Part shown: positions 1-21,572 of the stretch, piece after piece
How the letters are laid out: each line of letters begins with the position of its first letter
Position numbering within the stretch: the first letter of the stretch is position 1
Virus record (IMG/VR): IMGVR_UViG_2713896773_000026
DNA length: 24,192 nt
Source: a virus
Taxonomy: Duplodnaviria > Heunggongvirae > Uroviricota > Caudoviricetes
Strand: one strand, 5' to 3'
The notes under the pieces: generated by a model
What the model was told of the DNA's origin: nothing
The model's input: only the letters and a program-made list of their open reading frames with translations
Database searches by the model: none
Translations under genes and position numbers: made by a program

Positions 1-1053
1 TTACGGGGTAATGCCAACCGCTGCCGCCACTTTGTCGCCACTTGGCAGCGTTGCCAGAGGATTGAAACGGAGCGCCGTTTCCAGATGATCCGGTGCCAGA
101 TGTGCGTAACGCATAGTCATTTTTATATCGTGGTGTCCGAGAATTTTTTGTAAGGCCAGAATATTTCCACCCGACATCATGAAGTGCGCCGCAAACGTAT
201 GGCGCAGAACGTGTGTGAGTTGACCGCGAGGGAGCACGATAGACGTTTTTTCCATCACGGATAAAAATTGAAAATAGCAGTCTGTGAAGAAATTGAACCC
301 ATCAAGCGCCATGATCTCTTCGTAAAGCTCTTTACTGATAGGGATGCTTCTGTTTTTCTTCCCCTTCGTTCTGACAAAGGTAATTCGGTATTTGGTCACC
401 TGTGAGCGGGTAAGATTTACGGCTTCACGCCAGCGTGCGCCTGTGCTTAAGCATATCTTAACTACCAGTGCCAGAATTGGGTCCTGACGTTTGCAATCAG
501 CCAGCAATTCAACAATCTGCTCATGGGTAAGCCATGCCATCTCTTTTTCTGCGATGGTGAATTTTCGCATGTTCTCCAGTGGATTCGGATACGACCATTC
601 GCCCAGACGGGATAGTTCGCTAAAAACACTACTTAGATAGCTTTGCTCCAGGTTAATGGTGACCGGGCTTGCTCCTTTCTTCCATTTCTCGCTGAAGTAG
701 ATCTCGCCTGTCAGGCGTTTATCTCGATAGTGGGCAAACATTTTAGAGGTGAGATCGGTTGCAAGAGGATTGCCCAGAGCGTCAACCATCAACAGCAATT
801 TGTCATAGACATGCTGCCCAGCTGTCAGAGATTTACCATGTAGTTTGAACCATAGCTCAACCACGTCTTTCAGTGTTCGACGATCCACTGATTCACCCAG
901 CCAGGGCTTTGCTTCGGTTTCTTCCATCGTGTGGCGCTCAAAAGCCAGTGCTTCGCCTTTGGTGGCGAATTGTTTACGCACACGACGCCCACTTCGTCCG
1001 GCGGGGTAACATTCACAAAGCCATTTCCCAGTGGTGAGTTTTCGTACTGCCAT
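1..1053 (-). CDS. int: Phage integrase (tyrosine recombinase, P2/186 Int family)
   Basis: C-terminal HxLRHTFA...Y catalytic region (HVLRHTFAAHF, MTMRYAHL). N-terminus MAVRKLTTGKW aligns with remembered P2 Int MAIKKLDDGRY; GGAGGG RBS upstream of the ATG at 1053. The longer ORF to 1209 is rejected. Confidence 0.9.
   Translation of the reverse strand: MAVRKLTTGKWLCECYPAGRSGRRVRKQFATKGEALAFERHTMEETEAKPWLGESVDRRTLKDVVELWFKLHGKSLTAGQHVYDKLLLMVDALGNPLATDLTSKMFAHYRDKRLTGEIYFSEKWKKGASPVTINLEQSYLSSVFSELSRLGEWSYPNPLENMRKFTIAEKEMAWLTHEQIVELLADCKRQDPILALVVKICLSTGARWREAVNLTRSQVTKYRITFVRTKGKKNRSIPISKELYEEIMALDGFNFFTDCYFQFLSVMEKTSIVLPRGQLTHVLRHTFAAHFMMSGGNILALQKILGHHDIKMTMRYAHLAPDHLETALRFNPLATLPSGDKVAAAVGITP
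19..40. repeat. attL: attL core (left copy of the 22-bp direct repeat cgctgccgccactttgtcgcca)
   Basis: 21/22 identical to 21338..21359; lies in the last codons of the integrase gene; flanks differ on both sides. Confidence 0.65.
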
Positions 1054-1241
1054 AAAAAATGCCCTCCAGTAGAGAGCATTTTTACTGTATGTATAACCAG
1101 TGTCAATGTATGAAATCCTACGACCATACATCTCACTGAAGCCATAATGAAGTTGGCTATTCTTTTTGCTATGTGAGCATGTAACTTTTGCGGTTAACCT
1201 GCGGCTCATTTTTATTTTAGACGCAGATATAAAAGCAAAAG

Positions 1242-1433
1242 TTATCGTGAGTTTTTAGTACAGATTTTTTTGGATTTACTAATAGTTCCATCATTGCAAA
1301 CAAATTTTCCATCGGAGGTACAGTGAGAGACCCCTCCCTTTTTCCCAGAACAAGGATAATTTTTAGCATAGGTAGTTAGTGGGCTTAATAACAAAGAGCA
1401 TGATAAAACCACAAAAAATACTTTACCAAGCAT
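1242..1433 (-). CDS. Small secreted Cys-rich protein (63 aa, signal peptide plus about 40-aa basic mature part with 4 Cys); moron in the cI-int operon
   Basis: Strong GGAGG RBS 5 nt upstream; hydrophobic N-terminus [23 protein letters not shown]; AT-rich relative to the flanking cI and int. Confidence 0.55.
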
Positions 1434-1448
1434 AGTTTCCTCCCGGTA

Positions 1449-2024
1449 TTATCTAACATATTTAACTGTTAAACTTATAATTTTACCAATTATTTCAATG
1501 TCTTCTATCTTACATTCGAAGGCTCTGTTTCCACCCTCGACGAAGATTCTTCCACCGGGTAAACGAGTAATGTCACGGATCGTTACTTCGCCATCAATAC
1601 TTATTACCCATTTACCATCACGTATGTCATCAAATTCTTTATCACAAATAAATTCAGAATTGTTATCTGTGATGACAAAAGGTTTTTTAAACGTAGAGGG
1701 TAGAAATCTCTTATCAAAAATATAAAAACCGTCTTCACGCAAGGCACCATCAGATAATACATATTTAGCAACTTCCATAGTATTTGTATTACCTGAAGTT
1801 TGCTTTGAACCATGTCCGGTTGTGAGCCAATTAAGCGAGGTGCCCGTTTCAAGGGCGCACTGGATTACCCATTCTGCTGGGAATGAGTCACGCATGTAGC
1901 GTGTGGCGAGTGTACTTTTAGAGATTCCTAAATGATCGCACAACGCCTGTCGAGTCTTGAATCCATAAGCTTCTACCATGCGCTCTATGGCGCCTCGTCC
2001 GCCTTTCTCCAAATTCATGGTCAC
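1449..2024 (-). CDS. cI: CI-type immunity repressor (N-terminal HTH, C-terminal oligomerisation domain), 186 CI-like
   Basis: 191 aa; HTH-like segment QALCDHLGISKSTLATRYMRD; position between int and the divergent apl/cII operon. Confidence 0.8.
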   Translation of the reverse strand: MTMNLEKGGRGAIERMVEAYGFKTRQALCDHLGISKSTLATRYMRDSFPAEWVIQCALETGTSLNWLTTGHGSKQTSGNTNTMEVAKYVLSDGALREDGFYIFDKRFLPSTFKKPFVITDNNSEFICDKEFDDIRDGKWVISIDGEVTIRDITRLPGGRIFVEGGNRAFECKIEDIEIIGKIISLTVKYVR

Positions 2025-2041
2025 TCCAAGTGAACTTTTAT

Positions 2042-2070
2042 CTTGACGATTTCACTGTGCGATCGTATGT
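2042..2070 (+). promoter_or_regulatory. Candidate early lytic promoter pR (-35 TTGACG, 17-bp spacer, -10 TATGTT) reading into apl-cII
   Basis: Sigma70-like hexamers with 17-bp spacing in the cI/apl intergenic region; imperfect inverted repeats around it (GTGAAC ... GTTCAC) could be operators. Confidence 0.4.
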
Positions 2071-2143
2071 TTATGGTGTTCACAAAATACAAACGATCCG
2101 TATTCGTCCTGATTAATCATCATTAAACGAGGAATGTTGCATC

Positions 2144-2365
2144 ATGAGACCTAACATTTCAATCACTCTTACCACGCCTCATGTGACTATTGAACGCTAT
2201 AGCGAGCTGACAGGGCTATCCATCGATACCATCAATGACATGTTGGCTGATGGACGCCTTATCCGTCACCGTCTGCGCAAAGATAAAAAACGCGAAAAAG
2301 TGATGATCAACATAGCAGCAATGACCGTTGATGCGCTTTCAGAATGCAATCTAAACCTTAATTAG
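2144..2365 (+). CDS. apl: Apl/Cox-like excisionase and transcriptional regulator
   Basis: 73-aa basic protein, first gene of the rightward early operon divergent from cI, as in 186/P2. Confidence 0.65.
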
Positions 2366-2397
2366 TTCGATTCTGAAATACATCAGAGGCATTGACC

Positions 2398-2907
2398 ATG
2401 TTTGATTACCAAGTTTCCAAACATCCACATTTTGATGAAGCCTGTCGTGCATTTGCACTGCGCCACAATCTGGTGCAACTGGCAGAACGTGCAGGCATGA
2501 ATGTGCAGATTCTGCGGAACAAGCTGAACCCAGCTCAGCCTCATTTATTAACCGCACCAGAAATCTGGCTGCTTACCGATCTGACTGAAGATTCAACGCT
2601 GGTAGATGGTTTTCTGGCACAGATTCATTGTCTGCCATGTGTACCGATTAATGAGGTGGCAAAAGAGAAACTGCCACATTACGTCATGAGTGCAACCGCA
2701 GAGATCGGGCGTGTTGCTGCAGGTGCGGTGTCTGGCGATGTAAAAACCTGTGCCGGTCGTCGTGATGCTATCAGCAGCATTAACTCTGTAACACGACTGA
2801 TGGCGCTGGCTGCTGTTTCATTGCAGGCCCGTTTACAGGCTAATCCTGCGATGGCGAGTGCAGTTGATACCGTGACTGGCCTCAGTGCTTCATTCGGTTT
2901 GCTGTGA
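2398..2907 (+). CDS. cII: CII-like lysogeny establishment regulator
   Basis: 169 aa from the ATG at 2398 (AGAGG RBS); position after apl; length matches 186 CII. Confidence 0.65.
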
Positions 2908-2914
2908 GGTGCTT

Positions 2915-3211
2915 ATGCTGACGAAAGAACCATCATTTGCATCGCTGCTGGTAAAACAAAGCCCGGCAATGCACTACGGTCACGGCTGGATCACGGGTGA
3001 GGATGGAAAACGCTGGCATCCATGTCATTCACAAGATGAATTGCTGTCTGAATTGACCACGAGGAAACGGAGAAAGTCCAAATGTATGCGGCAGAAAGTG
3101 AAGTGGTTTATCAGTTTCGTTACAGAGGGGAGAGTTATTCAGTACCTGAAGATGATTTGCTCTGTTGCTATCCGTCATTGTCGGGCGATGGCAGTTACTT
3201 TTTCACGTTAA
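2915..3211 (+). CDS. Hypothetical early protein (98 aa); overlaps the next ORF in another frame
   Basis: ATG at 2915 with GAGG RBS right after the cII stop; the frame stays open to 3211. Confidence 0.35.
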   Translation: MLTKEPSFASLLVKQSPAMHYGHGWITGEDGKRWHPCHSQDELLSELTTRKRRKSKCMRQKVKWFISFVTEGRVIQYLKMICSVAIRHCRAMAVTFSR

Positions 3212-3306
3212 AGGATGGGACGTTTTTACGGGGAGAGCAGTTTAAAGAGACGATACGAAAAAATGTATCTCCTCTTGAGCGTTACCGTAAGAACAAAGAA
3301 CGATAG
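3082..3306 (+). CDS. Hypothetical early protein (74 aa)
   Basis: ATG with GGAGA RBS; protein-like composition (MYAAESEVVYQFRYRGESYSVPEDD...). Confidence 0.5.
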   Translation: MYAAESEVVYQFRYRGESYSVPEDDLLCCYPSLSGDGSYFFTLKDGTFLRGEQFKETIRKNVSPLERYRKNKER

Positions 3307-3328
3307 CTGCGTTTGGGGGATATGAAGT

Positions 3329-3670
3329 ATGGCAATTAATGGCGCTGCAGCAACTGTTCCATTAAGCCCCGGTGAACGCCTGAATGGACTTAATCACATT
3401 GCGGAGTTAAGGGCGAAAGTTTTTGGCCTGAATATTGAGTCAGAGCTTGAGCGGTTTATTAAAGATATGCGTGATCCACGGGATATCAATAATGAACAAA
3501 ATAAACGGGCACTGGCTGCCATATTCTTTATGGCAAAAATTCCAGCTGAACGTCATAGCATCAGCATTAATGAGCTGACCACTGACGAAAAGCGGGAGCT
3601 GATTAAAGCAATGAATCATTTTCGTGCAGTGGTGAGCTTATTTCCCAGACGGCTAACCATGCCGAATTAA
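3329..3670 (+). CDS. Hypothetical phage early protein (113 aa)
   Basis: ATG preceded by GGGGGA; compact operon context. Confidence 0.6.
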   Translation: MAINGAAATVPLSPGERLNGLNHIAELRAKVFGLNIESELERFIKDMRDPRDINNEQNKRALAAIFFMAKIPAERHSISINELTTDEKRELIKAMNHFRAVVSLFPRRLTMPN

Positions 3671-3737
3671 CCAACTAATGAAATTAATGGCGTAAACCCG
3701 CCGGGCATCCCTTTATCTAAATTCAGGAGAATTGATT

Positions 3738-3971
3738 ATGCGTAATATTGAAACCTTCACGACTAAAACCGGACCGGATGACGCAGGGCTTAATATTTTA
3801 CTGACAGAGGCTCGTCTGGAAGAACGCCGGGCAAGGGCTGAAGCAATGGCTGCTCGCCTTGATAGCCTGGCGTGTCATATCTCATCCCGCCAGCTAAACC
3901 ACGTGGAAGCGGCAGAACTGCTGCGCGTGACTGCTGAAGCAATCCAGAACGAAGCGCAGGAGATCCACTAA
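3738..3971 (+). CDS. Small phage protein (77 aa), DUF2732-like
   Basis: AGGAGA RBS 6 nt upstream of the ATG at 3738; its stop overlaps the next start (TAATG). Confidence 0.55.
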   Translation: MRNIETFTTKTGPDDAGLNILLTEARLEERRARAEAMAARLDSLACHISSRQLNHVEAAELLRVTAEAIQNEAQEIH

Positions 3972-4198
3972 TGGCTGATGCAATGGATCTCGTACAGCAG
4001 CGCGTTGAAGAAGAACGCCAGCGCCATATCCGTGCAGCCCGTGCCAAATCACCGGGCGTGTCACGCGTACTTTGCATTGAATGTGAAGCGCCAATTCCGC
4101 CAGCACGACGCCGCGCCATTCCGGGAGTGCAGCTTTGCATTACCTGTCAGGAAATCGCAGAACTGAAAGGCAAACATTACAACGGAGGTGCTGTATGA
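3971..4198 (+). CDS. TraR/DksA-family C4 zinc-finger protein
   Basis: CxxC-X17-CxxC (CIECEAPIPPARRRAIPGVQLCITC); 75 aa; typical of P2-like early regions. Confidence 0.8.
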   Translation: MADAMDLVQQRVEEERQRHIRAARAKSPGVSRVLCIECEAPIPPARRRAIPGVQLCITCQEIAELKGKHYNGGAV

Positions 4199-5052
4199 GC
4201 ACCATCCTGAAATGGGCGGGAAATAAAACCGCCATTATGCCAGAACTGAAAAAATACCTTCCTGCTGGCCCGCGACTGGTTGAACCTTTCGCGGGTTCCT
4301 GTGCTGTGATGATGGAAACGGATTATCCCAGCTATCTGGTTGCGGATATTAATCCTGATTTAATCAACCTCTATAAAAAGGTTGCCGCTGATTGTGAATC
4401 GTTTATATCTCGCGCCAGAGTTTTATTTGAGATCGCAAACAGGGAGGTGGCTTATTACAACATAAGGCAGGAGTTTAACTGCTCAACTGAAATTACTGAT
4501 TTCATGAAAGCGGTATATTTCCTGTATCTCAATCGTCACGGTTACCGTGGTTTATGTCGCTATAACAAGAGCGGGCATTTCAACATTCCCTACGGTAATT
4601 ATAAAAATCCGTATTTCCCTGAAAAAGAACTTCGCACATTTGCAGAAAAAGCCCAGCGAGCAACGTTTATCTGCGCCAGCTTTGATGAAACGCTGGCGAT
4701 GTTGAAGGCGGGAGATGTGGTGTATTGCGATCCGCCATATGACGGTACGTTTTCCGGCTATCACACTGATGGTTTCACTGAAGATGACCAGTATCACCTG
4801 GCATCCGTTCTTGAACATCGGTCATCAGAAGGACATCCGGTCATTGTTTCTAACAGTGACACATCCCTGATCCGTTCGCTGTATCGCAATTTTACTCACC
4901 ACTATATCAAGGTAAAACGCAGCATCGGTGTGGCAGCTGGCGAGGGTAAATCAGCAACAGAAATCATTGCTGTTTCCGGGCCGCGCTGCTGGATGGGATT
5001 TGATTATTCGCGTGGCGTGGATAGTTCTGCCGTGTACGGAGTACGTGCATGA
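4195..5052 (+). CDS. dam: DNA adenine methyltransferase (Dam-like, orphan MTase)
   Basis: N-terminal AdoMet motif LKWAGNK...EPFAGSCAV and catalytic DPPY motif ([10 protein letters not shown]); ATGA overlap with the upstream stop. Confidence 0.9.
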
Positions 5053-7463
5053 GTCATGCCGATATGAACAACTGCTGCGGCTTTAACGAGGCTGCCGCAG
5101 CATTCTCATGGAACAGCCCGAAAAAGGCCATTAACCCTTATCTGGACCCGGCGGAAGTTGCGCCGGTTTCTACGCTTTCAAACCTGATCACTCTGTACGC
5201 TGCCGATAACGAGCAGGAACAGTTGCGCCGCGAGGCACTGAGTGATCAGGTCTGGGAGCGTTATTTCTTTAATGAATCACGTGATCCTGTCCAGCGCGAA
5301 ATGGAGCAGGATAAGCTCATTAGCCGGGCAAAGCTGGCGCATGAGCAGCAGCGTTTTAATTCAGACATGGTCATTCTGGCGGACGTCAACGCCCAGCCTT
5401 CCCATATCAGCAAGCCGCTGATGCAACGTATTGAATACTTCAGCAGCCTGGGCAGGCCAAAGGCTTATTCCCGCTATTTACGTGAGACGATTAAGCCATG
5501 TCTGGAACGACTGGAGCATGTACGCGACAGTCAGCTATCTGCATCTTTTCGCTTTATGGCAAGCCATGAAGGGCTGGACGGCCTGCTGATCCTGCCTGAA
5601 ATGAGTCAGGATCAGGTGAAACGCCTGTCCACCCTGGTAGCTGCGCATATGAGTATGTGCCTTGATGCAGCTTGTGGTGATTTGTATGCCACCGATGACG
5701 TTAAGCCAGAAGAAATCCGCAAGACATGGGAAAAGGTGGCAGCGGAAACCCTGCGTCTGGATGTCATCCCACCTGCGTTTGAGCAACTCCGTCGGAAAAG
5801 AAACCGCCGTAAACCCGTGCCCTATGAACTCATTCCGGGTTCGCTGGCGCGTATGTTGTGCGCCGACTGGTGGTATCGGAAATTATGGAAGATGCGTTGC
5901 GAATGGCGGGAAGAGCAGTTGCGCGCAGTTTGCCTGGTCAGCAAAAAAGCATCTCCTTATGTCAGCTATGAAGCCGTGATGCATAAACGTGAGCAGCGCC
6001 GTAAGTCGCTGGAGTTTTTCCGTTCTCATGAACTGGTGAACGAAGACGGCGACACGCTGGACATGGAGGATGTGGTAAACGCCAGCAGCAGCAACCCTGC
6101 GCATCGCCGCAATGAGATGATGGCCTGTGTTAAAGGTCTGGAGCTTATCGCGGAAATGCGCGGTGACTGCGCCGTTTTCTACACTATCACCTGTCCGTCG
6201 CGTTTCCATTCCACGCTAAATAACGGCAGACCAAACCCGACCTGGACAAACGCGACGGTAAGACAAAGCAGCGATTATCTGGTCGGCATGTTTGCTGCAT
6301 TTCGTAAGGCGATGCACAAAGCCGGGTTGCGCTGGTATGGCGTGCGGGTGGCTGAGCCGCATCATGATGGCACAGTTCACTGGCACCTGTTGTGTTTCAT
6401 GCGCAAAAAAGACCGCCGTGCCATCACTGCATTACTGCGTAAGTTTGCCATCCGTGAAGACCGCGAGGAGCTGGGCAATAACACTGGGCCGCGCTTTAAG
6501 TCTGAGTTGATTAACCCGCGCAAAGGAACGCCGACAAGCTACATCGCGAAATATATCAGTAAGAACATTGACGGTCGTGGTCTGGCTGGCGAGATCAGCA
6601 AGGAAACGGGTAAATCTCTGCGTGATAACGCTGAATACGTGAATGCCTGGGCGTCTCTGCATCGTGTTCAGCAATTCCGCTTCTTTGGTATTCCGGGGCG
6701 TCAGGCTTACCGTGAACTTCGCTTGCTGGCTGGTCAGGCGGCAAGGCAACAGGGTGACAAAAAAGCAGGTGCGCCGGTACTGGATAACCCGCGTCTTGAT
6801 GCCATTCTGGCTGCTGCTGATGCTGGTTGTTTTGCCACCTACATCATGAAGCAGGGCGGCGTACTGGTTCCCCGTAAATATCACCTCATCAGAACCGCTT
6901 ATGAAATTAACGAAGAGCCGACCGCCTATGGCGATCACGGCATTCGTATTTATGGCATCTGGTCACCCATTGCAGAGGGCAAGATCTGCACTCATGCAGT
7001 GAAGTGGAAAATGGTTCGTAAAGCCGTTGACGTTCAGGAGGCGGCAGCCGACCAGGGCGCTTGCGCCCCTTGGACTCGTGGCAATAACTGTCCCCTTGCT
7101 GAAAATTTGTACCAACAAGGGAAAGACAAATCAGCTGATGGGGATACCAGAACGGATATCACCCGTATGGATGACAAGGAGTTGCACGATTACCTGTACA
7201 GTATGAACAAAAAAGAACGCCGGGAACTGGCTGCAAGGTTACGCCTGGTGAAACCGAAACGGCGTAGAGACTACAAACAGCGAATTACAGACCATCAACG
7301 ACAGCAGCTCGTCTATGAACTGAAGTCCAGAGGATTTGATGGCAGCGAGAAAGAGGTCGATTTACTCCTTCGCGGCGGCAGCATTCCATCAGGAGCAGGC
7401 CTGCGTATTTTCTATCGGAACCAGCGTTTGCAGGAAGATGATAAGTGGCGGAACCTGTATTAA
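5049..7463 (+). CDS. repA: Replication initiation endonuclease (P2 gpA / 186 RepA family, rolling-circle HUH)
   Basis: 804 aa; HUH motif [13 protein letters not shown] and tyrosine motif [10 protein letters not shown]; ATGA overlap with dam. Confidence 0.9.
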
Positions 7464-7555
7464 TTACGCGGATTAACAATTCGTGCTCTTAATAATACCA
7501 GGCATATCAGGCTGATGAACGTAAAAAAACGTTTTACATCAGTAAGATTATTATA

Positions 7556-7575
7556 TACTGTAAATATAAACAGTG
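7556..7575. promoter_or_regulatory. LexA (SOS) box TACTGTAAATATAAACAGTG overlapping a candidate -10 (TATACT) upstream of the tum-like gene
   Basis: CTGT-N8-ACAG with an AT-rich centre matches the LexA consensus taCTGTatatatatACAGta. Confidence 0.6.
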
Positions 7576-7616
7576 GTTATGTATACAGTATTGCTTGTGG
7601 TGTCATAGGAGGAAAG

Positions 7617-7805
7617 ATGCAGGACTATTTTTTGGAGTCTTTGAAGCTCCAACGCATTGATTTTTTTCTTAAGCTTGTAGCGGCTGGTGAGTGTAGTGAT
7701 GAAGAGAAGGGGCTGGCCCTGCAGTGGGTTTCTGAACTGACAGATGAACTCATGGCAAAAATCAGAAGCCACGAATACAACCGCTCAATGGATGTCATCA
7801 GCTGA
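7617..7805 (+). CDS. Small SOS-controlled protein (62 aa), possible Tum-like antirepressor module
   Basis: AGGAGG RBS 4 nt upstream of the ATG at 7617; immediately downstream of the LexA box; position equivalent to 186 tum. Confidence 0.5.
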   Translation: MQDYFLESLKLQRIDFFLKLVAAGECSDEEKGLALQWVSELTDELMAKIRSHEYNRSMDVIS

Positions 7806-7815
7806 GGGGACTTTT

Positions 7816-8049
7816 ATGCGCATTGAAATAATGATCGATAAAGAGCAGAAGATTAGCCAGTCTACCCTGGACGCCCTTGAATCAGAGCTTTACCGCAATC
7901 TGCGCCCCCTGTATCCCAAAACGGTAATTCGTATCCGTAAAGGTAGCTCTAACGGTGTGGAACTGACCGGACTGCAACTGGACGAAGAAAGGAAACAAGT
8001 GATGAAAATTATGCAGAAGGTGTGGGAAGACGACAGCTGGCTGCATTAA
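7816..8049 (+). CDS. DinI-family protein (77 aa)
   Basis: MRIEIMIDKEQKIS...VWEDDSWLH resembles E. coli DinI (MRIEVTIAK...TWESADDWF); GAGGGGA RBS. Confidence 0.75.
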   Translation: MRIEIMIDKEQKISQSTLDALESELYRNLRPLYPKTVIRIRKGSSNGVELTGLQLDEERKQVMKIMQKVWEDDSWLH

Positions 8050-8433
8050 GAAACGTTGCTGGCGTCTGAACTTGTTTCTGGCGTCAGCAAGGTTGAACAA
8101 CGAGCTATGCGAGGCGTTAGCCATCTGATCAAAAGACATCAAATATCATATTGTATATCGTGGTCAAACGCTGGAAACAATCATTCCCGATCAGAGGGGC
8201 TTCTTTCAATGTCCAAAAGAGTGAGATAGAGGATACAGGATGGGAAGAGCTTTTGATTAATTATCGTCCAAGTTTTTCAAAAGCTTCTTATCTGGCGGTC
8301 GATACATGATTTACTGTTGGATATGGTATTTAAAATTAATCTTTACACTGTGGTATATGCAGAATAGGATATTATCAATACAATCAAACTGTTTTCATAC
8401 GGTTATTAATATTGCAATGTTATAGGTAATGTC

Positions 8434-9552
8434 ATGTATCTTTTCAAGTATTACCGTCCGGACTTCTTCTTCGAGAAAGCTATTCGTTATAATGAATTAT
8501 ATTTTTCCGCTCCTGCGCAATTGAATGATCCCAATGATCTCAATATAGATTATCGCTTCGATAATAAATTGAAATTATGGGATATTTTATTGCGTTCTCC
8601 TTGCGATAAATCCTATAAAAATTTGAGTCACATATTGGATTTGAGTGATTTGAAAATACATAAGGGATTGAATCGTATTTTTAGAGGAAAAAAAATAAAA
8701 AGTAGCATTGAGTCATTAGATAGCCTGTTTGACTCACACGTTGATGAGATACGTAAGATCATAGATGATGGTTTACTACCTATCAATGTGATTAATTCTG
8801 CTATTTATGGAAATATTCCTGAACCACGCCAATATTTGGTTTCACTTTGCGAGAACAGTATCAAAGAAAGGTTGTATAGGAAGATAGTTCCTGCAGTATT
8901 CAGTGTGTCATTTTCAGCTAATGCGTTAGATCGTATGATGTGGGCGCATTATGCTGCTGGCTTTAGTGGTTGTGTTGTGATTTATGAAACGCAGGATTTT
9001 AATATTGATGGTATACCCTATACTGGAATGAAGCTAAGAGAAAATTTATTTTCATCAGATAAATTTAATTTTCCAGTTAAGCCAATAAAATATAGTAATC
9101 AGGCTAAAGAGGTTTCACTTCTAGACCCAAGCGCAAATGTTGCAGAGTTATTTTTAACTAAAAATAGATTTTGGAGATATGAAGCTGAATATCGAATGTT
9201 TATTCCGGAGGCAAATGCAGGAATAGGGAGTGAGCGGCATGTTCAAAGACGCGTAAATCGAAATATTGGACATATTTTTCATCATGATGCTAATGTTGTT
9301 AAAGGGATCATTTTTGGTCCTAGAATGTGTGAAATGAAAAAAGAAAGCATATGGAATTGTATCAAGTCAAATATGGAGAATTCAAATTCAACAATATGTT
9401 ATTTTTTTGACTCTGAGTTATTAGCATCAGGAAAGATTACTATTTCAAAAGGGCAACGAGCGGAAAAAATGAAAAATTTCACTTTGTTCAGGAACAAGTT
9501 AAGTCAGACGGAAATGGCTAAAGTTTTGAAGGAAATTGGCATTACGAACTAA
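8434..9552 (+). CDS. AT-rich cargo gene: 372-aa protein with a DUF2971-like N-terminal motif; candidate stand-alone anti-phage or accessory protein
   Basis: Long ORF, markedly AT-rich versus the prophage backbone; N-terminus LFKYYRPDFFFEKAIRYNELYFSAPAQLNDPND resembles the DUF2971 signature as remembered; own terminator downstream. Confidence 0.6.
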   Translation: MYLFKYYRPDFFFEKAIRYNELYFSAPAQLNDPNDLNIDYRFDNKLKLWDILLRSPCDKSYKNLSHILDLSDLKIHKGLNRIFRGKKIKSSIESLDSLFDSHVDEIRKIIDDGLLPINVINSAIYGNIPEPRQYLVSLCENSIKERLYRKIVPAVFSVSFSANALDRMMWAHYAAGFSGCVVIYETQDFNIDGIPYTGMKLRENLFSSDKFNFPVKPIKYSNQAKEVSLLDPSANVAELFLTKNRFWRYEAEYRMFIPEANAGIGSERHVQRRVNRNIGHIFHHDANVVKGIIFGPRMCEMKKESIWNCIKSNMENSNSTICYFFDSELLASGKITISKGQRAEKMKNFTLFRNKLSQTEMAKVLKEIGITN

Positions 9553-9618
9553 CCTAACAACAGTGCATGCCTATGCTGCCTGAATTTGCATGACCGTTTG
9601 AGGATCGTTTTTGCTAAG

Positions 9619-9642
9619 GCCCGCCAGAACTGGCGGGCTTTT
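9619..9642 (+). terminator. Rho-independent terminator after the DUF2971-like gene
   Basis: GC stem GCCCGCC/GGCGGGC with a 6-nt loop, followed by TTTT. Confidence 0.6.
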
Positions 9643-9687
9643 GCGTGGATCAGGCACCTGCATGAAAACCACTACACAAAGCGGGCA

Positions 9688-9706
9688 GGCGTGGCGGGGA
9701 TACGAG
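9688..9706. other. cos: cos-like sequence (GGCGTGGCGGGGATACGAG) in a GC-rich patch
   Basis: First 13 nt match the remembered 186 cohesive end GGCGTGGCGGGGA; the location between the accessory region and the portal side fits the P2/186 prophage map. Confidence 0.35.
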
Positions 9707-9719
9707 CGCGCGCAGCGGG

Positions 9720-9748
9720 TGGAAACTCAGATTTGAATGTTGTATAAA
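9720..9748 (+). promoter_or_regulatory. Candidate retron operon promoter (-35 TGGAAA, 17 bp, TG-adjacent -10 TATAAA)
   Basis: Hexamers about 30 bp upstream of the effector start; weak -35. Confidence 0.25.
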
Positions 9749-9777
9749 AGATGGGATCATTCTGAGGAAAAGTGGAT

Positions 9778-10683
9778 ATGAAAAAGAAAACTATTCCGGA
9801 GTTGCAGAAGCAAAATCTGGCAAATTTAATTAAAAGTCGGCTTTTTCAACAGAAAAATAAAAATAAAGTTACTGTTTTCCTTTGCGGGGGCGATTTGAAT
9901 GATCCGTTTTTTTGTAGAAATAAAGTTAAAAGAGTGTTGGAAACACATCCCAAAATAGAAATATTCTATCCTGAGGAGTTGTTTGATGAGCTTTTGTATG
10001 GACAAGGTCAGCATAGTCTTTTAAGTTTGGAGAATATTTTAGCTGATTCAGTCGATGTTATTATTATTATTCCTGAAAGCCCAGGGTCTTTCGCTGAATT
10101 GGGCGCATTTTCAAATAATGAAAAACTGTGCAAAAAAATGATATGTCTTCAGGATGACAAATTCAAACTTAAAAAAAGCTTTCTTAATTATGGGCCTATA
10201 AAACTGCTTCGGCGTGCTAATAGCGGTGCAGTATTGCGAGGAGATTTGTCGACTCTTGAAAGCTTGAGTACAGGTAAAGCTTTTTATAATAGAATTATAA
10301 AAAGTATTAATGACATCAAAAAAAATAACCCAGTTAATCACTCAATAGATAATATTCTTCACGCTCGGCGTTTTATACTGCCATGTATATATTTGATGGA
10401 TGGTATAGATAATATACTTCTATATGAGCTATTACATTTGGTGACTAAGAAAGATGCTATTCTTTGTGAAATTATCGTTAAGTCTGTTATTTCAAGCTTG
10501 ATTAAAGAGTCAATAATTAGGCGTTCAGTTCAAGGATACCATATTACAGAAATTGGTATGCAATACGTTCTTGAGCATTTTGATCGAAAGGCTTTGGACA
10601 ATCTACGACTGGATATGATGAACTTCGAAAATCGTGGTAAAACAATACTCCACTATGATAGGATGCGTTTTGCGCACCCTTAG
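9778..10683 (+). CDS. Retron effector, nucleoside 2-deoxyribosyltransferase-like (NDT) N-terminal domain with a C-terminal putative DNA-binding domain
   Basis: VTVFLCGGDLNDP and IIIIPESPGSFAELGAF motifs typical of the NDT fold; GAGGAAA RBS; 3' end overlaps the retron a1 repeat; AT-rich. Confidence 0.7.
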   Translation: MKKKTIPELQKQNLANLIKSRLFQQKNKNKVTVFLCGGDLNDPFFCRNKVKRVLETHPKIEIFYPEELFDELLYGQGQHSLLSLENILADSVDVIIIIPESPGSFAELGAFSNNEKLCKKMICLQDDKFKLKKSFLNYGPIKLLRRANSGAVLRGDLSTLESLSTGKAFYNRIIKSINDIKKNNPVNHSIDNILHARRFILPCIYLMDGIDNILLYELLHLVTKKDAILCEIIVKSVISSLIKESIIRRSVQGYHITEIGMQYVLEHFDRKALDNLRLDMMNFENRGKTILHYDRMRFAHP

Positions 10684-10831
10684 CGAGTGGCTTCTCCGGA
10701 AGTTCACTGGACAGTGTTTCGCTGTCCTACATACAATCTGAAGTTTTACCAGTTCCCTCATTGAAAGGAGAACATCTCCCGATGTTCTCCTTTCACTTCG
10801 GAATCTGATTTTTATGACGTAAGGGTGCGCT
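10671..10831 (+). ncRNA. msr-msd: Retron msr-msd non-coding RNA (msDNA template), flanked by a1/a2 inverted repeats
   Basis: a1 TGCGCACCCTTA (10671..10682) and a2 TAAGGGTGCGC (10820..10830) form an 11-bp inverted repeat; msr hairpin GGACAG-tgtttcg-CTGTCC (10709..10727); msd hairpin AAAGGAGAACATC-tccc-GATGTTCTCCTTT (10764..10793); ends 2 nt before the RT start. Confidence 0.8.
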
Positions 10832-10832
10832 C

Positions 10833-11807
10833 ATGACTTCCGCAACACCATCTCAGGTTTTTCGCTTACGCAATCTTGGATTGCCTGTTATGTCCTCTTT
10901 AGAGGATATGTCTAGAGAAATGCGTTTATCAGTAGACATACTCCGGTTGTACATTTATCGTGCTGACAAATACTATAAGGTTTATTCGTTGCCAAAAAGA
11001 GATGGCAAGAGATCCCGCATCATTTCACAGCCATCACGTGAGCTGAAGGCATTGCAAGCTTGGGTGTTAAGAAACATCCTTGATAAGTTACATTCATCCC
11101 CATTTTCCAAAGGCTTTGAAAAAGGGCAATCAATATTAAATAATGCCAGCCCACATGTAGGAGCTAACTATGTATTAAATATTGATTTAGAAGATTGTTT
11201 TAATACTATTCTGATAGAGAAAATCTATACTGTTTTTCATTCTCTGGGGTATAACTCTACTATTTCTAATGCTTTAGCAAGATTGTGTTCATTTAATGGT
11301 TCGCTACCTCAAGGTGCACCATCTTCTCCAAAGATTGCGAATCTTGTTTTAACTAAATTAGATTATAGAATACATGGATATGCAGGTAGTAAGGGGATCG
11401 TATTTACTCGATATGCCGATGATTTGACTTTATCTGCTCAATCTTTAAAAAAAATACTTAAAGCTAAGTCATTTGTATGCTCTATAATACCAAGTGAATC
11501 TTTGAAGGTTAATTATAATAAAGTTGCGATTCATGGCCCCAAAGCAAGGAAGGAGGTTACTGGGCTCGTTTTATCTATTGATAATGTTGGAGTTGGCAGA
11601 ATACGTTATCGCGAAATTAGAAGTAAGATCCATTATCTGGCAGTAAAAAGAAATTCTGATTTCGAACATGTTAAAGGACTTATTGCGTTTGTTAAAAGTG
11701 TAGACAAGAAAAACTATAGAAAATTGATGACTTTCTCAAATAAAATGTCTGAAGCATATGGGGTTGATCTAAGTGTTCTTTTTCCTAAAAACAAAAAGGC
11801 CATTTAA
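10833..11807 (+). CDS. ret: Retron-type reverse transcriptase
   Basis: 324 aa; RT motifs NIDLEDCF, LPQGAPSSP, YTRYADDLTLS (YADD at 11412..11423) and the retron-specific VTG motif (RKEVTGLV). Confidence 0.9.
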   Translation: MTSATPSQVFRLRNLGLPVMSSLEDMSREMRLSVDILRLYIYRADKYYKVYSLPKRDGKRSRIISQPSRELKALQAWVLRNILDKLHSSPFSKGFEKGQSILNNASPHVGANYVLNIDLEDCFNTILIEKIYTVFHSLGYNSTISNALARLCSFNGSLPQGAPSSPKIANLVLTKLDYRIHGYAGSKGIVFTRYADDLTLSAQSLKKILKAKSFVCSIIPSESLKVNYNKVAIHGPKARKEVTGLVLSIDNVGVGRIRYREIRSKIHYLAVKRNSDFEHVKGLIAFVKSVDKKNYRKLMTFSNKMSEAYGVDLSVLFPKNKKAI

Positions 11808-11817
11808 TGGCCTTTTT
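11793..11817. terminator. Bidirectional hairpin terminator between the convergent RT and portal genes
   Basis: Palindrome AAAAAGGCCAT-tta-ATGGCCTTTTT with A/T runs on both sides; overlaps the RT stop. Confidence 0.55.
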
Positions 11818-11822
11818 GTTTA

Positions 11823-12854
11823 TTAGGTAATTGAATAACTCACGAAATTAATAACTTCTTCATTTATCCATTCGTTCAGCTCTTCTAGTCTTTTTTGTAA
11901 AGGGATGAGTTCATTCCTCACAAAAACATTAGCAGCTTTCTCTACATCCCCAAATCCTCCAACATTATTAGGCATAATCCCCATCATTTGCGGTGGCACA
12001 CGATGCGCCGCCATCATGTCATCCCGGCTCACGTTCTTGATGTTCAGAAACTCATCCTTCGCCGCGACCTCTGACAACGGGATAATCTGAAGCCCGTCCT
12101 TTTTGCCGTTAGGCGAGTACATAAACAGGTTGCGGAAGTTACCCGGTCCTTTGGCGCTTTTCATCGCGTTGCGGAGGTTGTTCACGTCCTCCTGGTTCTG
12201 CGCGGCATCGGTCATGTACATGATGAAGCCAGCATGACTGCCGTTTATGTAATACTTTCGACGGAACAGCGTGGCGGACTCATTGAGCAGGGCGGACGGA
12301 ATAGCAGAAAGATAGCCGGGCAGGCCATAGATCTCCTGATTTATGTCCGGTTCCATCAGATGGAAAATGCTGCCTTTCGTGAACTGATACGGTTGCGTGG
12401 TCATGCCGTATTGCACAAACCAGTAGGTATCTAGGTCTAATCCACGTCGGGTGTATTTTGCCAGCGCAGGCTCAAGAGCGATAACTTCACCGAATCGGTT
12501 CGTGCGTTTCTCCAGGTAGGCGTTACCAAATACCAGATAGTCCTGCACAAAACGCGAAAAAGCCTGCTGGCTGAGCAGCGGATGAGGGATATAGGTACTG
12601 GTCAGAATGTTGCACTTTACTGCAATCGGGGAACTGTGATGCACGGCGGCGCGGAAGGTGCGCGCCAGTCCGTCAAAGCTGACGGGCGGCTCATACCAAC
12701 GGTCCATCTGTACGCATTCCACATAATCCAGCAGTTCTCGGCGGTCCAGAACAGGAACGGGATCGCCGAAGCTGAATGCTTCGGCTGTAGTTTGACTTTT
12801 AAGCTGGATCTGTTTCGTCGCCGCAGCGCGGTTCTTCTTACTCTTTCCCATCAA
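11823..12854 (-). CDS. Q: Portal (capsid portal protein, P2 gpQ family)
   Basis: 343 aa; position and orientation next to the terminase gene as in P2 (Q-P leftward operon). Confidence 0.85.
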   Translation of the reverse strand: MMGKSKKNRAAATKQIQLKSQTTAEAFSFGDPVPVLDRRELLDYVECVQMDRWYEPPVSFDGLARTFRAAVHHSSPIAVKCNILTSTYIPHPLLSQQAFSRFVQDYLVFGNAYLEKRTNRFGEVIALEPALAKYTRRGLDLDTYWFVQYGMTTQPYQFTKGSIFHLMEPDINQEIYGLPGYLSAIPSALLNESATLFRRKYYINGSHAGFIMYMTDAAQNQEDVNNLRNAMKSAKGPGNFRNLFMYSPNGKKDGLQIIPLSEVAAKDEFLNIKNVSRDDMMAAHRVPPQMMGIMPNNVGGFGDVEKAANVFVRNELIPLQKRLEELNEWINEEVINFVSYSIT

Positions 12855-14554
12855 AAAATCTCCACAATATTGCTGGTATTGGCGGATTCGCCCTGCAGCG
12901 GTTCGTTAAACAGTGCGTGCATCGTTGCCCAGGCCAGATCGGCGTGGCTGGCTTCTTCGCTGCGGCTGGCTTCATAGGTCGGGCGGTTGCCACTGGCGGT
13001 GGTGGCGCGACGGATTGCCATAAAGGACTGCGCTATGTCGGTGTGTCCGGCGTCAAACTCCAGACGGCGGTGGCTGATAATGTCGTAGGCCTTGAGTACC
13101 AGGGCGTTTTTAACGTTGGGGTTGTAGACAAACTCCCGGACGGCAGGAAAAAACGCTTTCACGTTCTCGTAAACCCCGTGACCAACGCCGGTTGAGTCGA
13201 TACCGATATAGGTCACGTTGTACTGTTCGGTCAGTTTTTTGATGGCGTCAGCCTGGGCGCGGAAGTCCATTCCGCGCCACTGGTGACGCTCAAGAATGCG
13301 GAACTTACCGCCCGGCACGGCTGGCGGCGCCACCACCACGCATCCGGCGCTGTCGCCGTTCTGCGTACCTTTCGCCGGGTCATATCCGATCCACACTTCG
13401 CGCCAGCCAAACGGGCGCAGGGCCAGTGCATGAAAGTCGGTCCAGACTTCCCAACTGTCCACCATGCACGCCTGCAGCTCGCTGAGTGGGAACACAGACG
13501 CGAGATCGTCCACGAACTCACACATCAGCAGGTTCTGGTATTCGTCCGGGCTGTACTCCATGCGCAACTGGTCGAGGTCGAACAGGTTACAGCCGCCGCG
13601 CACCGCATCTTCCACAGTGACTATCTGGCGGTACTGCCCGTCTGCGCACAGCAGGCCGGGGGCCAGATTGCTGTGGGACAGGTCGATGTCCACCTTATCG
13701 GCTTTGTTGCGCCCTCGGTTGAACAGCGCACCGGACCAGAACGGATAAGCACTGTGTGTCAGGCTGGATGGCGTGGAAAAATAGGTTTGTCGCCATTTTT
13801 TGTGAATAGCCATACCGGAAGCCACTTTGCGCAGCTCCTGGAATTTCGGTATCCAGAAATATTCATCCAGATACAGGTTGCCGTGGTAACTCTGGGCCGT
13901 GCGGGCATTGGTGCCGAGGAAGTACAGCGTGGCCCCGTTAGGAAGCACCATCGGATCGCCTTTCAGCTCCACCTCCACTTCTTTGGCGAAGTCGATGATG
14001 TACTGCTTAAAGACGTGGGCCTGAGCCTTGCTGGCGGAAAGGAAAATCTGGTTACGCCCGGTTAGCAGGGCGTCAATCAGGGCTTCACGGGCAAAATAGA
14101 AGGTCGCGCCGATCTGGCGTGACTTCAGCAGGTTGCGGATGCGGTTGGTTTTTCCGGCTTCCCACCAGTGGCGCTGGTAGTTGAACATGGAGGAATGGAA
14201 GATTTCTTCCAGCTTCTCAATCTGTTCATCGGTGAAAACGTTCTTTTCCGGCTGACGGCGCGGGCCTTTGTTGCGGTTGGCGACGTTAGGGTTTAAGTCG
14301 GCTTCGTTGCCGCCATTGTTAAACTTGCCGATCCGCGCATGGCGCTCCGACTGGCGCGCCAGCAGGTCAATCTCTTTGAAATCTTTCCCTTCTTTGTGCT
14401 CCTTCATAATGAGCTGGCAGTAGCGTGCGGCGGTGGTGAGCTGCATCTGATCCAGCGGCCCATAGTCACCCCACTTGTCGCGTTTTTTCCAGCTGTGAAC
14501 GGTTGCAACTTTCTCGCCCAGCATTTCAGCAATGCGGGCTATCTGCCCAGACAC
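12851..14554 (-). CDS. P: Terminase large (ATPase) subunit, P2 gpP family, 5'-truncated at a deletion junction and probably non-functional
   Basis: 567 aa; nuclease-domain-like segments; the upstream in-frame sequence is antisense to the sheath gene, so the native N-terminus and promoter are missing; the GTG start is an ORF-caller artefact. Confidence 0.8.
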
Positions 14555-19931: not shown

Positions 19932-21028
19932 ATTTCAGCTCTGAACTGCTTAACAAAGGCAACAAAACTCCCGCATTCAGCATCAGTATTGAGGGCAGGG
20001 ATATCACTACTGTGCTGGATAACCGTCTGATGAGTCTGACGCTGACGGACAATCGGGGCTTTGAAGCGGACCAGCTTGATCTGGAGCTGGACGACGCCGA
20101 CGGAAAAATCGTGCTGCCGCGCCGTGGTGCGGTCATCACGCTGGCGCTGGGCTGGAAGGGGCAGCCGCTTTTCCCGAAAGGGGCATTCACGGTGGACGAG
20201 ATTGAACACACCGGCGCACCGGATCGCCTGACTATCCGGGCGCGAAGTGCTGATTTTAGGGAAACGCTGAATACCCGCCGTGAAAAATCGTGGCACAAGA
20301 CCACTGTCGGGGAAGTGGTGAAGGAAATAGCCGCGCGTCATAAGCTGAAGATGGCACTGGGTAAAGACCTGTCGGATAAGCCCGTGGAGCATATAGACCA
20401 GACTAATGAGAGTGACGGCAGTTTTCTGATGCGGCTGGCGCGCCAGTACGGTGCCATCGCGTCGGTGAAAAATGGCAATCTGTTATTCATCCGGCAGGGA
20501 CAGGGCAAAAGCGCCAGCGGTAAACCACTGCCGGTGATCTCAATCACACGTAAGGACGGCGACAGTCACCGCTTTACCCTGGCAGATCGCGGAGCCTACA
20601 CGGGCGTAATTGCCAGTTGGTTGCATACCCGCGAACCCGAGAAGAAAGAAAGCACCACGGTGAAGCGTAAGCGCAGGACTAAGAAGCAGAAGAAAGAGCC
20701 GGAAGCGAAGCAGGGCGATTACCTGGTGGGTACGGATGAAAACGTGCTGGTACTTAATCGCACTTATGCCAACCGGAGCAACGCCGAACGGGCAGCGAAA
20801 ATGCAGTGGGAACGCCTGCAACGCGGCGTTGCATCATTCTCGCTACAACTGGCGGAAGGGCGGGCAGATCTCTACACAGAAATGCCTGTGAAGGTCAGTG
20901 GCTTTAAACAGCCGATAGATGATGCGGAATGGACCATTACGACTCTGACGCATACCGTCAGCCCCGATAACGGTTTTACAACCAGTCTGGAGCTTGAAGT
21001 GAGGATTGATGATTTCGAAATGGAATGA
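19928..21028 (+). CDS. D: Tail protein gpD (late gene D family)
   Basis: 366 aa; GTG start overlapping the U stop with a GGGAGGG RBS; position before ogr. Confidence 0.8.
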   Translation: MNFSSELLNKGNKTPAFSISIEGRDITTVLDNRLMSLTLTDNRGFEADQLDLELDDADGKIVLPRRGAVITLALGWKGQPLFPKGAFTVDEIEHTGAPDRLTIRARSADFRETLNTRREKSWHKTTVGEVVKEIAARHKLKMALGKDLSDKPVEHIDQTNESDGSFLMRLARQYGAIASVKNGNLLFIRQGQGKSASGKPLPVISITRKDGDSHRFTLADRGAYTGVIASWLHTREPEKKESTTVKRKRRTKKQKKEPEAKQGDYLVGTDENVLVLNRTYANRSNAERAAKMQWERLQRGVASFSLQLAEGRADLYTEMPVKVSGFKQPIDDAEWTITTLTHTVSPDNGFTTSLELEVRIDDFEME

Positions 21029-21118
21029 TTATTCGCAATGGAGAACTTTTAAGTTTGCAAAATGGAATAATGCGGTATCATTATTGTGAATTTAGCAAAA
21101 ATGGGGAGAACTCGAAAA

Positions 21119-21337
21119 ATGATGATTTGCCCACTGTGTGGAAGTGCCGCCCATACTCGCAGCAGTTTTCAGGTATCTTCATTGACCAAAGAGCGTTACA
21201 ACCAGTGCCAGAACATTAACTGCAGCCATACTTTTGTTACCCATGAAACTTTTGTTCGTTCGATTGCAACGCCAAAAGAGTCAAATCCGGTTCAGCCGCA
21301 TCCAATGAAATCAGGACAGGTGGCGCTCTCTCTTTGA
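21119..21337 (+). CDS. ogr: Late transcription activator, Ogr/B (Delta) zinc-finger family
   Basis: 72 aa from the ATG at 21119; CPLCGSAAH...CQNINCSH zinc-finger pattern as in P2 Ogr (CPLCQHAAH...CQNVNCS). Confidence 0.85.
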   Translation: MMICPLCGSAAHTRSSFQVSSLTKERYNQCQNINCSHTFVTHETFVRSIATPKESNPVQPHPMKSGQVALSL

Positions 21338-21359
21338 CGCTGCCGCCATTTTGTCGCCA
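21338..21359. repeat. attR: attR core (right copy of the 22-bp direct repeat cgctgccgccattttgtcgcca)
   Basis: 21/22 identical to 19..40; immediately after the ogr stop. Confidence 0.65.
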
Positions 21360-21415
21360 TCGTTAAAAAACAGTGTTTCTAACATCATGATTTTAAACAG
21401 CTTAAATTTCAGGCA

Positions 21416-21460
21416 ACAAAAAACCCATCAACCTTGAACCGAAATGGCGGGGTTGATGGG
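21416..21460 (-). terminator. Candidate rho-independent terminator downstream of ybjL
   Basis: 10-bp stem CCCATCAACC/GGTTGATGGG (17-nt loop) followed on the minus strand by a U-run (plus-strand A6). Confidence 0.4.
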
Positions 21461-21572
21461 CTCCACAAAATGGGGACATCAAAGAAAAGCAGTGGCACTA
21501 ATTAAGACTGATGCCCTGCGGAAAAGTTCTGCGGTTGTGCAAAAAAATTTCATTTTCAGGGCAACTTCAGTT

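Follow-up and report, generated by a model that had tools for sequence, protein, structure and literature searches.

Cargo genes next to the cohesive-end site (cos) of P2- and 186-related phages have been described before. As cited in PMC6868368, Dodd and Egan (1996, Virology 219:115) reported that the retrons Ec86 and Ec67 have taken the place of about 180 bp that otherwise separate cos from a packaging-gene terminator in a 186-related prophage, and the old/tin side has been described as the highly variable 'TO' region (Odegrip et al. 2006, as cited in PMC9122126). The gpA–gpQ region has been catalogued as a defence hotspot by means of its flanking core genes (Rousset et al. 2022, PMC9122126; Moura de Sousa et al. 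2026, PMC13586616); according to the same studies it lies next to cos, holds retrons as well as other defence genes, and has its content swapped rapidly between near-identical phages. In P2-like phages, the position between cosL and Q was proposed as a pick-up site for foreign genes (PMC5694545, on phiRSY1 and phiRSX of Ralstonia, with Nakayama et al. 1999 cited there to the same effect). That cohesive ends may serve as recombination seeds was offered as speculation by Rousset et al. (PMC9122126), and Moura de Sousa et al. (PMC13586616) state that the recombination processes of the hotspot remain to be elucidated. Here, we analysed a 24,192-nt stretch of tailed-phage DNA (IMG/VR record IMGVR_UViG_2713896773_000026; henceforth referred to as the window), in which a gene of the DUF2971 family and a retron lie on the two sides of a predicted cos at about 8.1–11.9 kb. 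We consider it very probable (roughly 0.88) that this region is the cos-proximal accessory hotspot of a P2/186-family (Peduoviridae) prophage and that it consists of two independently exchanged slots, one with the DUF2971 gene and one with the retron. Direct observations cover the composition and boundaries of the two cassettes, the independence with which they assort and the families to which the parts of the retron belong.

Two AT-rich cassettes flank a conserved cos block

To delimit the cassettes, we set the window first against 8 annotated relatives, and subsequently against 130 loci retrieved from GTDB genomes and IMG/VR by means of the portal protein; in addition, 5,426 complete E. coli genomes were surveyed and the carriers of each cassette were counted. 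The features of the region are as follows.

8123–9562, plus strand: left cargo cassette (right-end, old/tin-equivalent side), GC 0.33, from homology breaks against the 8 relatives and empty-site comparison
8434–9552, plus strand: DUF2971 / PDC-S31 gene, the sole cargo gene of this cassette, 372 amino acids, predicted DarT-like ADP-ribosyltransferase fold
9563–9713, plus strand: cos module, 151 bp, GC 0.58, from conservation in relatives and alignment to the P2 and 186 ends
9616–9641, plus strand: conserved hairpin followed by UUUUG (fold −23.6 kcal/mol, z = −4.1)
9688–9706, plus strand: predicted 19-nt cohesive end GGCGTGGCGGGGATACGAG, from homology to the 186 and P2 ends
9714–11954, plus strand: right (left-end, cos–Q) exchange unit, comprising the retron, a bidirectional terminator and the last 37 portal codons, from mismatch maps and the portal breakpoint
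9778–10683, plus strand: retron effector of the Ec86/St85 family, nucleoside deoxyribosyltransferase-like (NDT-like) with a C-terminal DNA-binding domain
10672–10830, plus strand: retron non-coding RNA (ncRNA; msr-msd), fold −73.7 kcal/mol, z = −9.4
10833–11807, plus strand: retron reverse transcriptase (RT), 324 amino acids, with NASPH, YADD and VTG motifs in the translation
11785–11821, either strand: intrinsic terminator, bidirectional, where RT and portal gene converge (−20.8/−21.8 kcal/mol, z = −7.1/−6.3 on the two strands)
11823–11936, minus strand: cargo-linked AT-rich 3' end of Q (last 37 codons and stop), GC 0.32, GC at third codon positions (GC3) 0.29
11823–12854, minus strand: portal gene Q, the right bound of the hotspot, from Pfam Phage_portal and annotation in relatives

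Sliding-window GC across the backbone averaged 0.52 (sd 0.04–0.05). Against backbone windows of equal length, the left tract (8224–9560, GC 0.331) and the right tract (9715–11822, GC 0.354) both deviated with z = −3.9, while the patch between them (9561–9714, GC 0.578) was backbone-like; GC3 was 0.27–0.29 in the three cargo genes vs. 0.57–0.72 in gpA, Q and P. Profile and GC3 thus agree with an earlier reading made from the letters alone (the sequence-only reading), which had described a shift to low GC at about 8.1–11.8 kb broken by a GC-rich patch: the computed profile is far from uniform, and in related phages the cassettes are not conserved backbone, the two outcomes that this reading had named as fatal to it. 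Its boundaries needed revision. By column conservation the patch covers 9563–9713 and not 9600–9720; positions 8050–8122 belong to the conserved backbone, with the left cassette beginning at about 8123 by empty-site comparison; and the low-GC tract, instead of ending at 11820, continues to about 11950 and so covers roughly the last 130 bp of the portal gene. The cos-like motif that it saw in the patch can be aligned, flanks included, to the 19-nt cohesive ends annotated in 186 and P2, and its placement of the left cassette on the right-end (old/tin) side and of the retron on the left-end side fits the gene order of the P2/186 maps. The terminator that it placed in the patch corresponds to a strong hairpin followed by UUUU at 9616–9641, although this hairpin may also, or instead, be a cos or terminase-recognition element. 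Finally, its proposal of two separate acquisitions in place of one island is upheld by the genome counts, alternative partners and mismatch maps presented below.

The cos module starts, on the right-end side, with 125 bp that hold TGCATG repeats and the hairpin; the 19-nt cohesive end comes next, followed by 7 bp. Among 126 distinct related sequences, column conservation was 0.8–1.0 inside this block vs. 0.3–0.5 outside, falling to background within 1–2 bases on either side of 9563–9713, and the block was kept in relatives having neither cassette as well as in every relative irrespective of its cargo. Comparing GGCGTGGCGGGGATACGAG with the 186 cohesive end (GGCGTGGCGGGGAAAGCAT), we found 13 of 19 positions to be identical (the P2 counterpart is GGCGAGGCGGGGAAAGCAC); the window, 186 and P2 also have flanks in common, namely ...AAAACC..GCGGGCA directly before the cohesive end and (T/C)GCGCGC directly after it (CGCGCGC in the window). 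The predicted cohesive end was nearly invariant in the 130 loci, and it lies where a cos of this family is expected, with the right-end accessory region on one side and the 3' end of the leftward-running portal gene on the other. Positions 9688–9706 are thus predicted to be a P2/186-family cos, at which terminase would cleave.

The hairpin at 9616–9641 was kept in the cos block of all relatives, and phage 186 has a similar one (CGCCAGAGCTGGCG) equally far from the cut, albeit without the T run. It may be the terminator of a left-slot or SOS transcript, a structural or terminase-recognition element of cos, or both. This hairpin and that at 11785–11821 were both folded directly, as a terminator scan missed these two obvious structures.

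The two cassettes assort independently and meet at cos

Both cassettes occurred together in only two of the 5,426 genomes (KFu015 and 97.3), and additionally in one IMG/VR contig. The left cassette was present in 27 genomes and the retron, a rare allele, in 4; other right-slot cargo was found in 25 of the 27 DUF2971 carriers and other left-slot cargo in two of the four retron carriers. Specifically, across cos the DUF2971 cassette was partnered by at least four right-slot cargoes (including an AAA family ATPase, a DUF4062 protein and a 380-amino-acid hypothetical protein), and the retron by four left-slot states (including an empty slot, two hypothetical genes, and a SIR2 family protein with an ATP-binding protein). 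The 130 loci comprised 57 left types and 91 right types in 123 combinations. Content between gpA and gpQ next to cos was variable in otherwise similar phages, with annotated cargo in relatives that included SIR2 plus ATP-binding proteins, AAA ATPases, DUF4062, AIPR/abortive-infection and Hypoth_Ymh proteins, and RTs.

Mismatch maps placed the meeting point of the two cassettes. Relative to two DUF2971 carriers, the window showed dense mismatches up to about 7031 followed by near-identity, with zero differences at 9423–9712; relative to two retron carriers, it showed 21–22 differences at 9564–9677, 1–6 at 9678–11954, and dense differences from 11955. The window therefore consists of two short donor patches meeting within 36 bp (9678–9713) that hold the cohesive end. 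We rejected an exchange of whole arms at cos, as the stretch of near-identity begins no earlier than about 7.03 kb with the DUF2971 carriers, and with the retron carriers it stops at 11.95 kb.

The cos block itself was asymmetric in its linkage. Its identity was high between loci with the same left and different right cargo (median 0.97–0.98), and close to background (0.83) between loci with the same right and different left cargo (mean 0.84–0.87), indicating that the allele of the block follows the left cargo and not the right. Considering single polymorphic sites, the 22 sites up to 9677 were mixed within 1–4 of 16 left types vs. 5–9 of 18 right types, and sites 9700, 9706 and 9707 were mixed within none of the 18 right types; the switch in linkage therefore lies in or next to the 19-mer. 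For 41 pairs that share the right cargo but not the left, the differences reached no further right than 9686, and in every locus examined the right-slot cargo started 7–8 bp past the cohesive end. Altogether, these comparisons support separate acquisition of the two cassettes, with separate histories.

The right-hand unit extends into the portal gene

In relatives with an empty right slot, cos and portal gene are separated by a GC-rich (0.59) spacer of 140–241 bp with the portal terminator, as in P2 and 186. Nothing of this spacer and terminator is left in the window: the terminator at 11785–11821 takes the place of the GC-rich tQ/tW terminator of empty-slot loci, and the replaced tract reaches 37 codons into the portal gene, ending just after the GDVEK codons (about 11937–11955). 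Apart from its tail, Q has a GC of 0.53 and a GC3 of 0.59. We found the tail to be linked to the cargo across loci. Specifically, in 1,933 pairs with different right cargo and portal bodies at least 93% identical, the last 96 nt were 64% identical, and in none did they exceed 90%; in 50 pairs with the same right cargo, they were 98% identical. Tail GC was 0.365 where the slot was occupied vs. 0.547 where it was empty (p = 1e-6), occupied-slot tails had a GC3 of 0.36 vs. 0.67 for the gene body, and the P2 and 186 portal tails have normal GC. From these alignments, the right-hand unit appears to end at a fixed point in the portal gene, with each cargo bringing its own AT-rich last 37 codons.

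As an alternative we considered a portal tail that evolves fast intrinsically, and rejected it: in empty-slot loci the tail has normal GC and diverges at a rate approximately equal to, or modestly higher than, that of the remaining gene.

KFu015 and VG888-46E9 have the same portal protein (WP_054623379.1), while their genes differ at about 30 sites in the 650 nt upstream of the tail. Since the proteins are identical, all of these differences are synonymous, a pattern suggestive of a deeply diverged backbone that is under strong purifying selection and lies beside a nearly identical cassette.

The left cassette encodes a probable DUF2971 protein

Relatives with an empty left slot have only a 79-bp spacer between dinI and the cos block and place the insertion point at about 8122/8123. 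The single cargo gene is named DUF2971 in RefSeq and matched PDC-S31 (a candidate family only) in PADLOC; its protein scored 21.3 bits against Pfam PF11185, just below the gathering cut-off of 22, while most homologues at 30–70% identity have a precomputed PF11185 match. Its predicted fold is that of an ADP-ribosyltransferase (ART), with the conserved tyrosine and the ExE motif present. The DUF2971 assignment is thus suggested by a sub-threshold Pfam match, a PADLOC candidate family and a predicted fold. An ART prediction for DUF2971 has been published (PMC12522546), and Aristaios is a validated lactococcal DUF2971 abortive-infection (Abi) gene (PMC11381338); by analogy, the protein is most likely an abortive-infection toxin of the Aristaios type.

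Compared with DarT, the protein has large helical inserts and an extra C-terminal domain, its sequence identity to solved ARTs is merely 8–13%, and the left cassette contains no DarG-type macrodomain partner. We also asked whether a small antitoxin might be encoded in the leader that precedes the DUF2971 gene, and discarded the idea: these 312 bp contain only two short open reading frames (ORFs) with TTG starts, neither of which has a Pfam match.

The right cassette is a complete type II-A retron

All three parts of a type II-A retron (an NDT-like effector, msr-msd and RT) are present in the right cassette. The effector matched PADLOC NDT_II-A (2.6e-97), NCBIfam NF038232 (186 bits, cut-off 100) and, over its full length, the effector chain of the Ec86 cryo-EM structure (PDB 7v9x_C, 5e-92). 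The RT matched PADLOC RT_II-A (4.9e-123), NCBIfam NF038233 (272 bits, cut-off 235) and the Ec86 RT of a cryo-EM structure (PDB 7v9u_A, 5e-124). Between the two genes, the ncRNA has a1/a2 repeats GCGCACCCUUA and UAAGGGUGCGC forming an 11-bp pairing, an unpaired G10683 as predicted branching G, two msr hairpins and a long msd hairpin at 10750–10807; a1, the following G and a2 are almost identical to those in the Ec86 ncRNA of BL21. In an Rfam search no family matched this ncRNA, the only matches being sub-threshold terminator-like ones at about 11.8 kb.

In Ec86, the RT and multicopy single-stranded DNA (msDNA) restrain the NDT-like, NAD-consuming effector until a phage perturbs the msDNA. By analogy, we infer that the retron of the window is a defence system with an msDNA-restrained effector.

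The effector stop codon TAG (10681–10683) overlaps the end of a1, and its G is the predicted branching G of msr, as is also the case in Ec86 of BL21. In a fifth genome of the survey, E. coli LR-48 (NZ_AP027543), a 226-bp remnant of the RT 3' end (window positions 11597–11822) adjoins the portal gene, and the hotspot also holds an IS1 transposase; to judge from its sequence, the remnant looks like a decayed or overwritten copy of the retron cassette.

Prophage backbone and its deletion

The window matched the prophage of E. coli KFu015 (P2/186-type, integrated by rcdA/ybjJ) at 100% over positions 1–14541. Its genes run from integrase through CI, CII, Fil, Dam methylase, gpA (5049–7463) and a small ORF to a DinI/Tum-like gene (7816–8049), followed by the region studied here, portal Q (11823–12854, minus strand) and terminase P. 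The resulting order of gpA, DinI/Tum-like gene, DUF2971, cos, retron, Q and P, with the last two on the minus strand, is that of the P2/186 map. Three backbone features lie upstream of the left cassette.

7556–7573, plus strand: LexA-box-like site (TACTGT-N8-ACAG, TACTGTAAATATAAACAG), the single match in the window, with 0.02 expected by chance
7816–8049, plus strand: DinI/Tum-like gene (Pfam DinI, 1.3e-22), annotated in all relatives
8050–8122, plus strand: conserved spacer with a hairpin (−28.4 kcal/mol, z = −2.8), identified from empty-slot sequences

The DinI/Tum-like gene is the last conserved backbone gene ahead of the left cargo slot; its NCBIfam DinI match (E 5.8e-11, 42.7 bits) is well under the curated cut-off of 111. 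A perfect LexA-box-like site precedes a 62-amino-acid ORF and this gene, in the same map position as the LexA site annotated upstream of tum in 186, and in this backbone context it appears to be the equivalent of the 186 p95 SOS operon. Since the site precedes a Tum-like gene as in 186, and given the gene order, the label '186-like' that the sequence-only reading had used is a fair one. In 186, transcription from p95 continues into orf97; in the same way, the DUF2971 cassette could be reached by transcription from an SOS promoter corresponding to p95. A promoter scan of our sequence returned 17 sites vs. 16.3 expected, and we claim no promoter from it.

Compared with the otherwise identical KFu015 prophage, the window has a deletion of about 12 kb with its junction at 14541/14542, joining codon 26 of terminase P to about codon 117 (mid-gene) of the tail sheath gene through a 2-nt microhomology (TA). 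This deletion removes the first 25 codons of terminase P along with every capsid, lysis, baseplate and tail-fibre gene, which renders the prophage in the window defective. The identical junction was also seen in an IMG/VR contig (L094).

Other irregularities lie outside both cassettes. The stretch at 7400–7850 is AT-rich (GC 0.38–0.41) and yet conserved backbone, and two more low-GC stretches were seen at 1201–1800 (0.34, near the integrase/CI end) and 21001–21600 (0.42, near the right end of the prophage). One relative (L176) has extra hypothetical genes between integrase and CI, and in E. coli 97.3 a group II intron (ltrA; L175, 839–2326) sits between gpA and the small ORF.

How the hotspot may be organised and exchanged

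We propose the following explanation for this arrangement. The 151-bp cos module would be needed in cis for packaging; because of this need it could not be interrupted, and it would split the hotspot into two slots. The left slot, at the right end of the virion and in the position of old/tin or 186 orf97, would carry a one-gene cassette for a DarT-like ADP-ribosyltransferase. The right slot, from cosL to the portal gene, would carry the type II-A retron, whose RT, by homology to Ec86/Eco1, would copy msd into msDNA; the NDT-like effector would be restrained by the RT–msDNA complex until a phage interferes with the msDNA, and once free it would kill or arrest the cell. For both cassettes the defence function and its mechanism are, like cleavage at the predicted cos, our interpretation. 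The pair seen in the window would have been born of recombination between a DUF2971 haplotype (about 7.03–9.71 kb) and a retron haplotype (9.68–11.95 kb), their junction falling within the invariant 36 bp around the cohesive end.

Three points weigh against this account. The 130 loci are biased to close relatives of one portal type and include near-duplicates, i.e., they are non-independent, and we relied on counts at the level of types; the latest transfer into this host could have moved both cassettes together; and a search of the left cassette for a DarG-like antitoxin found none that could restrain a DarT-like toxin.

Acquisition of the whole of 8.1–11.9 kb, cos patch included, as a single block strikes us as very improbable. 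The exact pair does recur in KFu015, 97.3 and one IMG/VR contig, showing that the cassettes can co-travel once combined, e.g., with a whole prophage; against this, different partner cargo accompanies most carriers of DUF2971 (25/27) and half of those of the retron (2/4), the cos block, as part of the backbone, occurs in all relatives irrespective of cargo, its allele tracks the left cargo and not the right, and two donor haplotypes meet at 9678–9713. We give still less credence to low GC as ordinary backbone variation as opposed to foreign cargo. Conserved AT-rich backbone indeed exists at 7400–7850 and 1201–1800, but both cassette tracts are absent in most relatives, where unrelated sequence or short empty sites replace them, and a cargo GC3 of 0.27–0.29 is far under that of backbone genes.

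Two separately acquired cassettes thus remain our preferred reading, and a further question is how they come to be exchanged. One possibility, which we regard as rather unlikely, is that terminase-cut or freshly injected cohesive ends are the recombination substrate and a second crossover follows nearby, in place of ordinary homologous recombination. The linkage of the 22 sites up to 9677 to the left cargo, the three unmixed sites (9700, 9706 and 9707) in the 18 right types, the lack of differences past 9686 in the 41 pairs, and the onset of right cargo 7–8 bp after the cohesive end in all loci examined would fit such a model. However, 9678–9713 is near-invariant, so that an identical pattern would be expected from ordinary crossovers in this interval, whether mediated by RecA or by the phage, while breakpoints elsewhere might be selected against if the block is a co-adapted unit. 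In addition, annealing of ends alone predicts alleles of the 19-mer that go with either side and not with the right cargo only, and the exchanged tracts are short patches and not whole arms, as homologous recombination in the flanks would also give. Our tentative suggestion, for which we see somewhat less than an even chance, is that right-slot cargoes are modules with two fixed ends (7 bp past the cohesive end, and the portal point after GDVEK), each with its own portal tail. If so, the portal C-terminus would effectively be part of the accessory module and, taken with the linkage switch at the 19-mer, the cos ends or the invariant cos core would anchor the recombination that drives turnover of the hotspot.

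Comparison with known systems

Ec86 (Retron-Eco1) of E. coli B/BL21 is the closest counterpart of the retron described here. Like the window retron, it lies in a defective prophage of the 186-related backbone family at the site by rcdA and occupies the slot between cos and the portal gene; both prophages are deleted, and both retrons have the order effector, msr-msd, RT. The left junction of Ec86 in BL21 falls at the same nucleotide as that of the window retron (directly after ...GAGCGCGCGC), and the latter stands in for the GC-rich spacer and terminator (about 150–240 bp) of empty sites, in line with the replacement that Dodd and Egan are cited for. The two differ in sequence: nucleotide identity is 68.7% over about 55% of the cassette, the effectors share about 50% amino-acid identity (global alignment), the msr and msd stems differ, and the window msd is shorter. 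As a rare relative of Ec86 with a different msd, this retron is a possible alternative scaffold for retron editing.

The left slot resembles the place of P2 old/tin and 186 orf97, likewise non-essential AT-rich cargo with a phage-exclusion role located between the replication/SOS genes and the right cohesive end. The cargo itself is unrelated to old and tin, being a single DUF2971 gene whose transcription heads for cos, and not away from it as that of old and tin does. Its position in a validated defence slot makes this candidate DarT-like DUF2971 gene well worth testing. On the other side of cos, the foreign genes of phiRSY1 and phiRSX lie between cosL and the Q homologue and leave phage functions undisturbed, as in the window slot, in other hosts and with other cargo (toxins and Vgr-like proteins). 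The older case attributed to Nakayama and colleagues is reportedly ctx of phiCTX.

The arrangement has been known since 1996 for retrons by cos and since 2022–2026 for gpA–gpQ, and as both cargoes are already annotated in RefSeq, the window adds little in this respect. What it contributes are boundaries at nucleotide level (an uninterrupted cos block, cargo 7 bp past the cohesive end, and the portal breakpoint), which constrain in a testable way how cassettes swap between phages. Fixed inner boundaries and a cargo-linked portal tail were not found in the literature that we searched, an incomplete set without Dodd and Egan (1996) itself. While the hotspot studies treat gpA–gpQ as one locus (PMC9122126, PMC13586616), here it comprises two slots, each with its own fixed junctions, split by a 151-bp cos block. 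The window is thus a clear example of an already described defence hotspot with new cargo alleles, and not a new kind of element.

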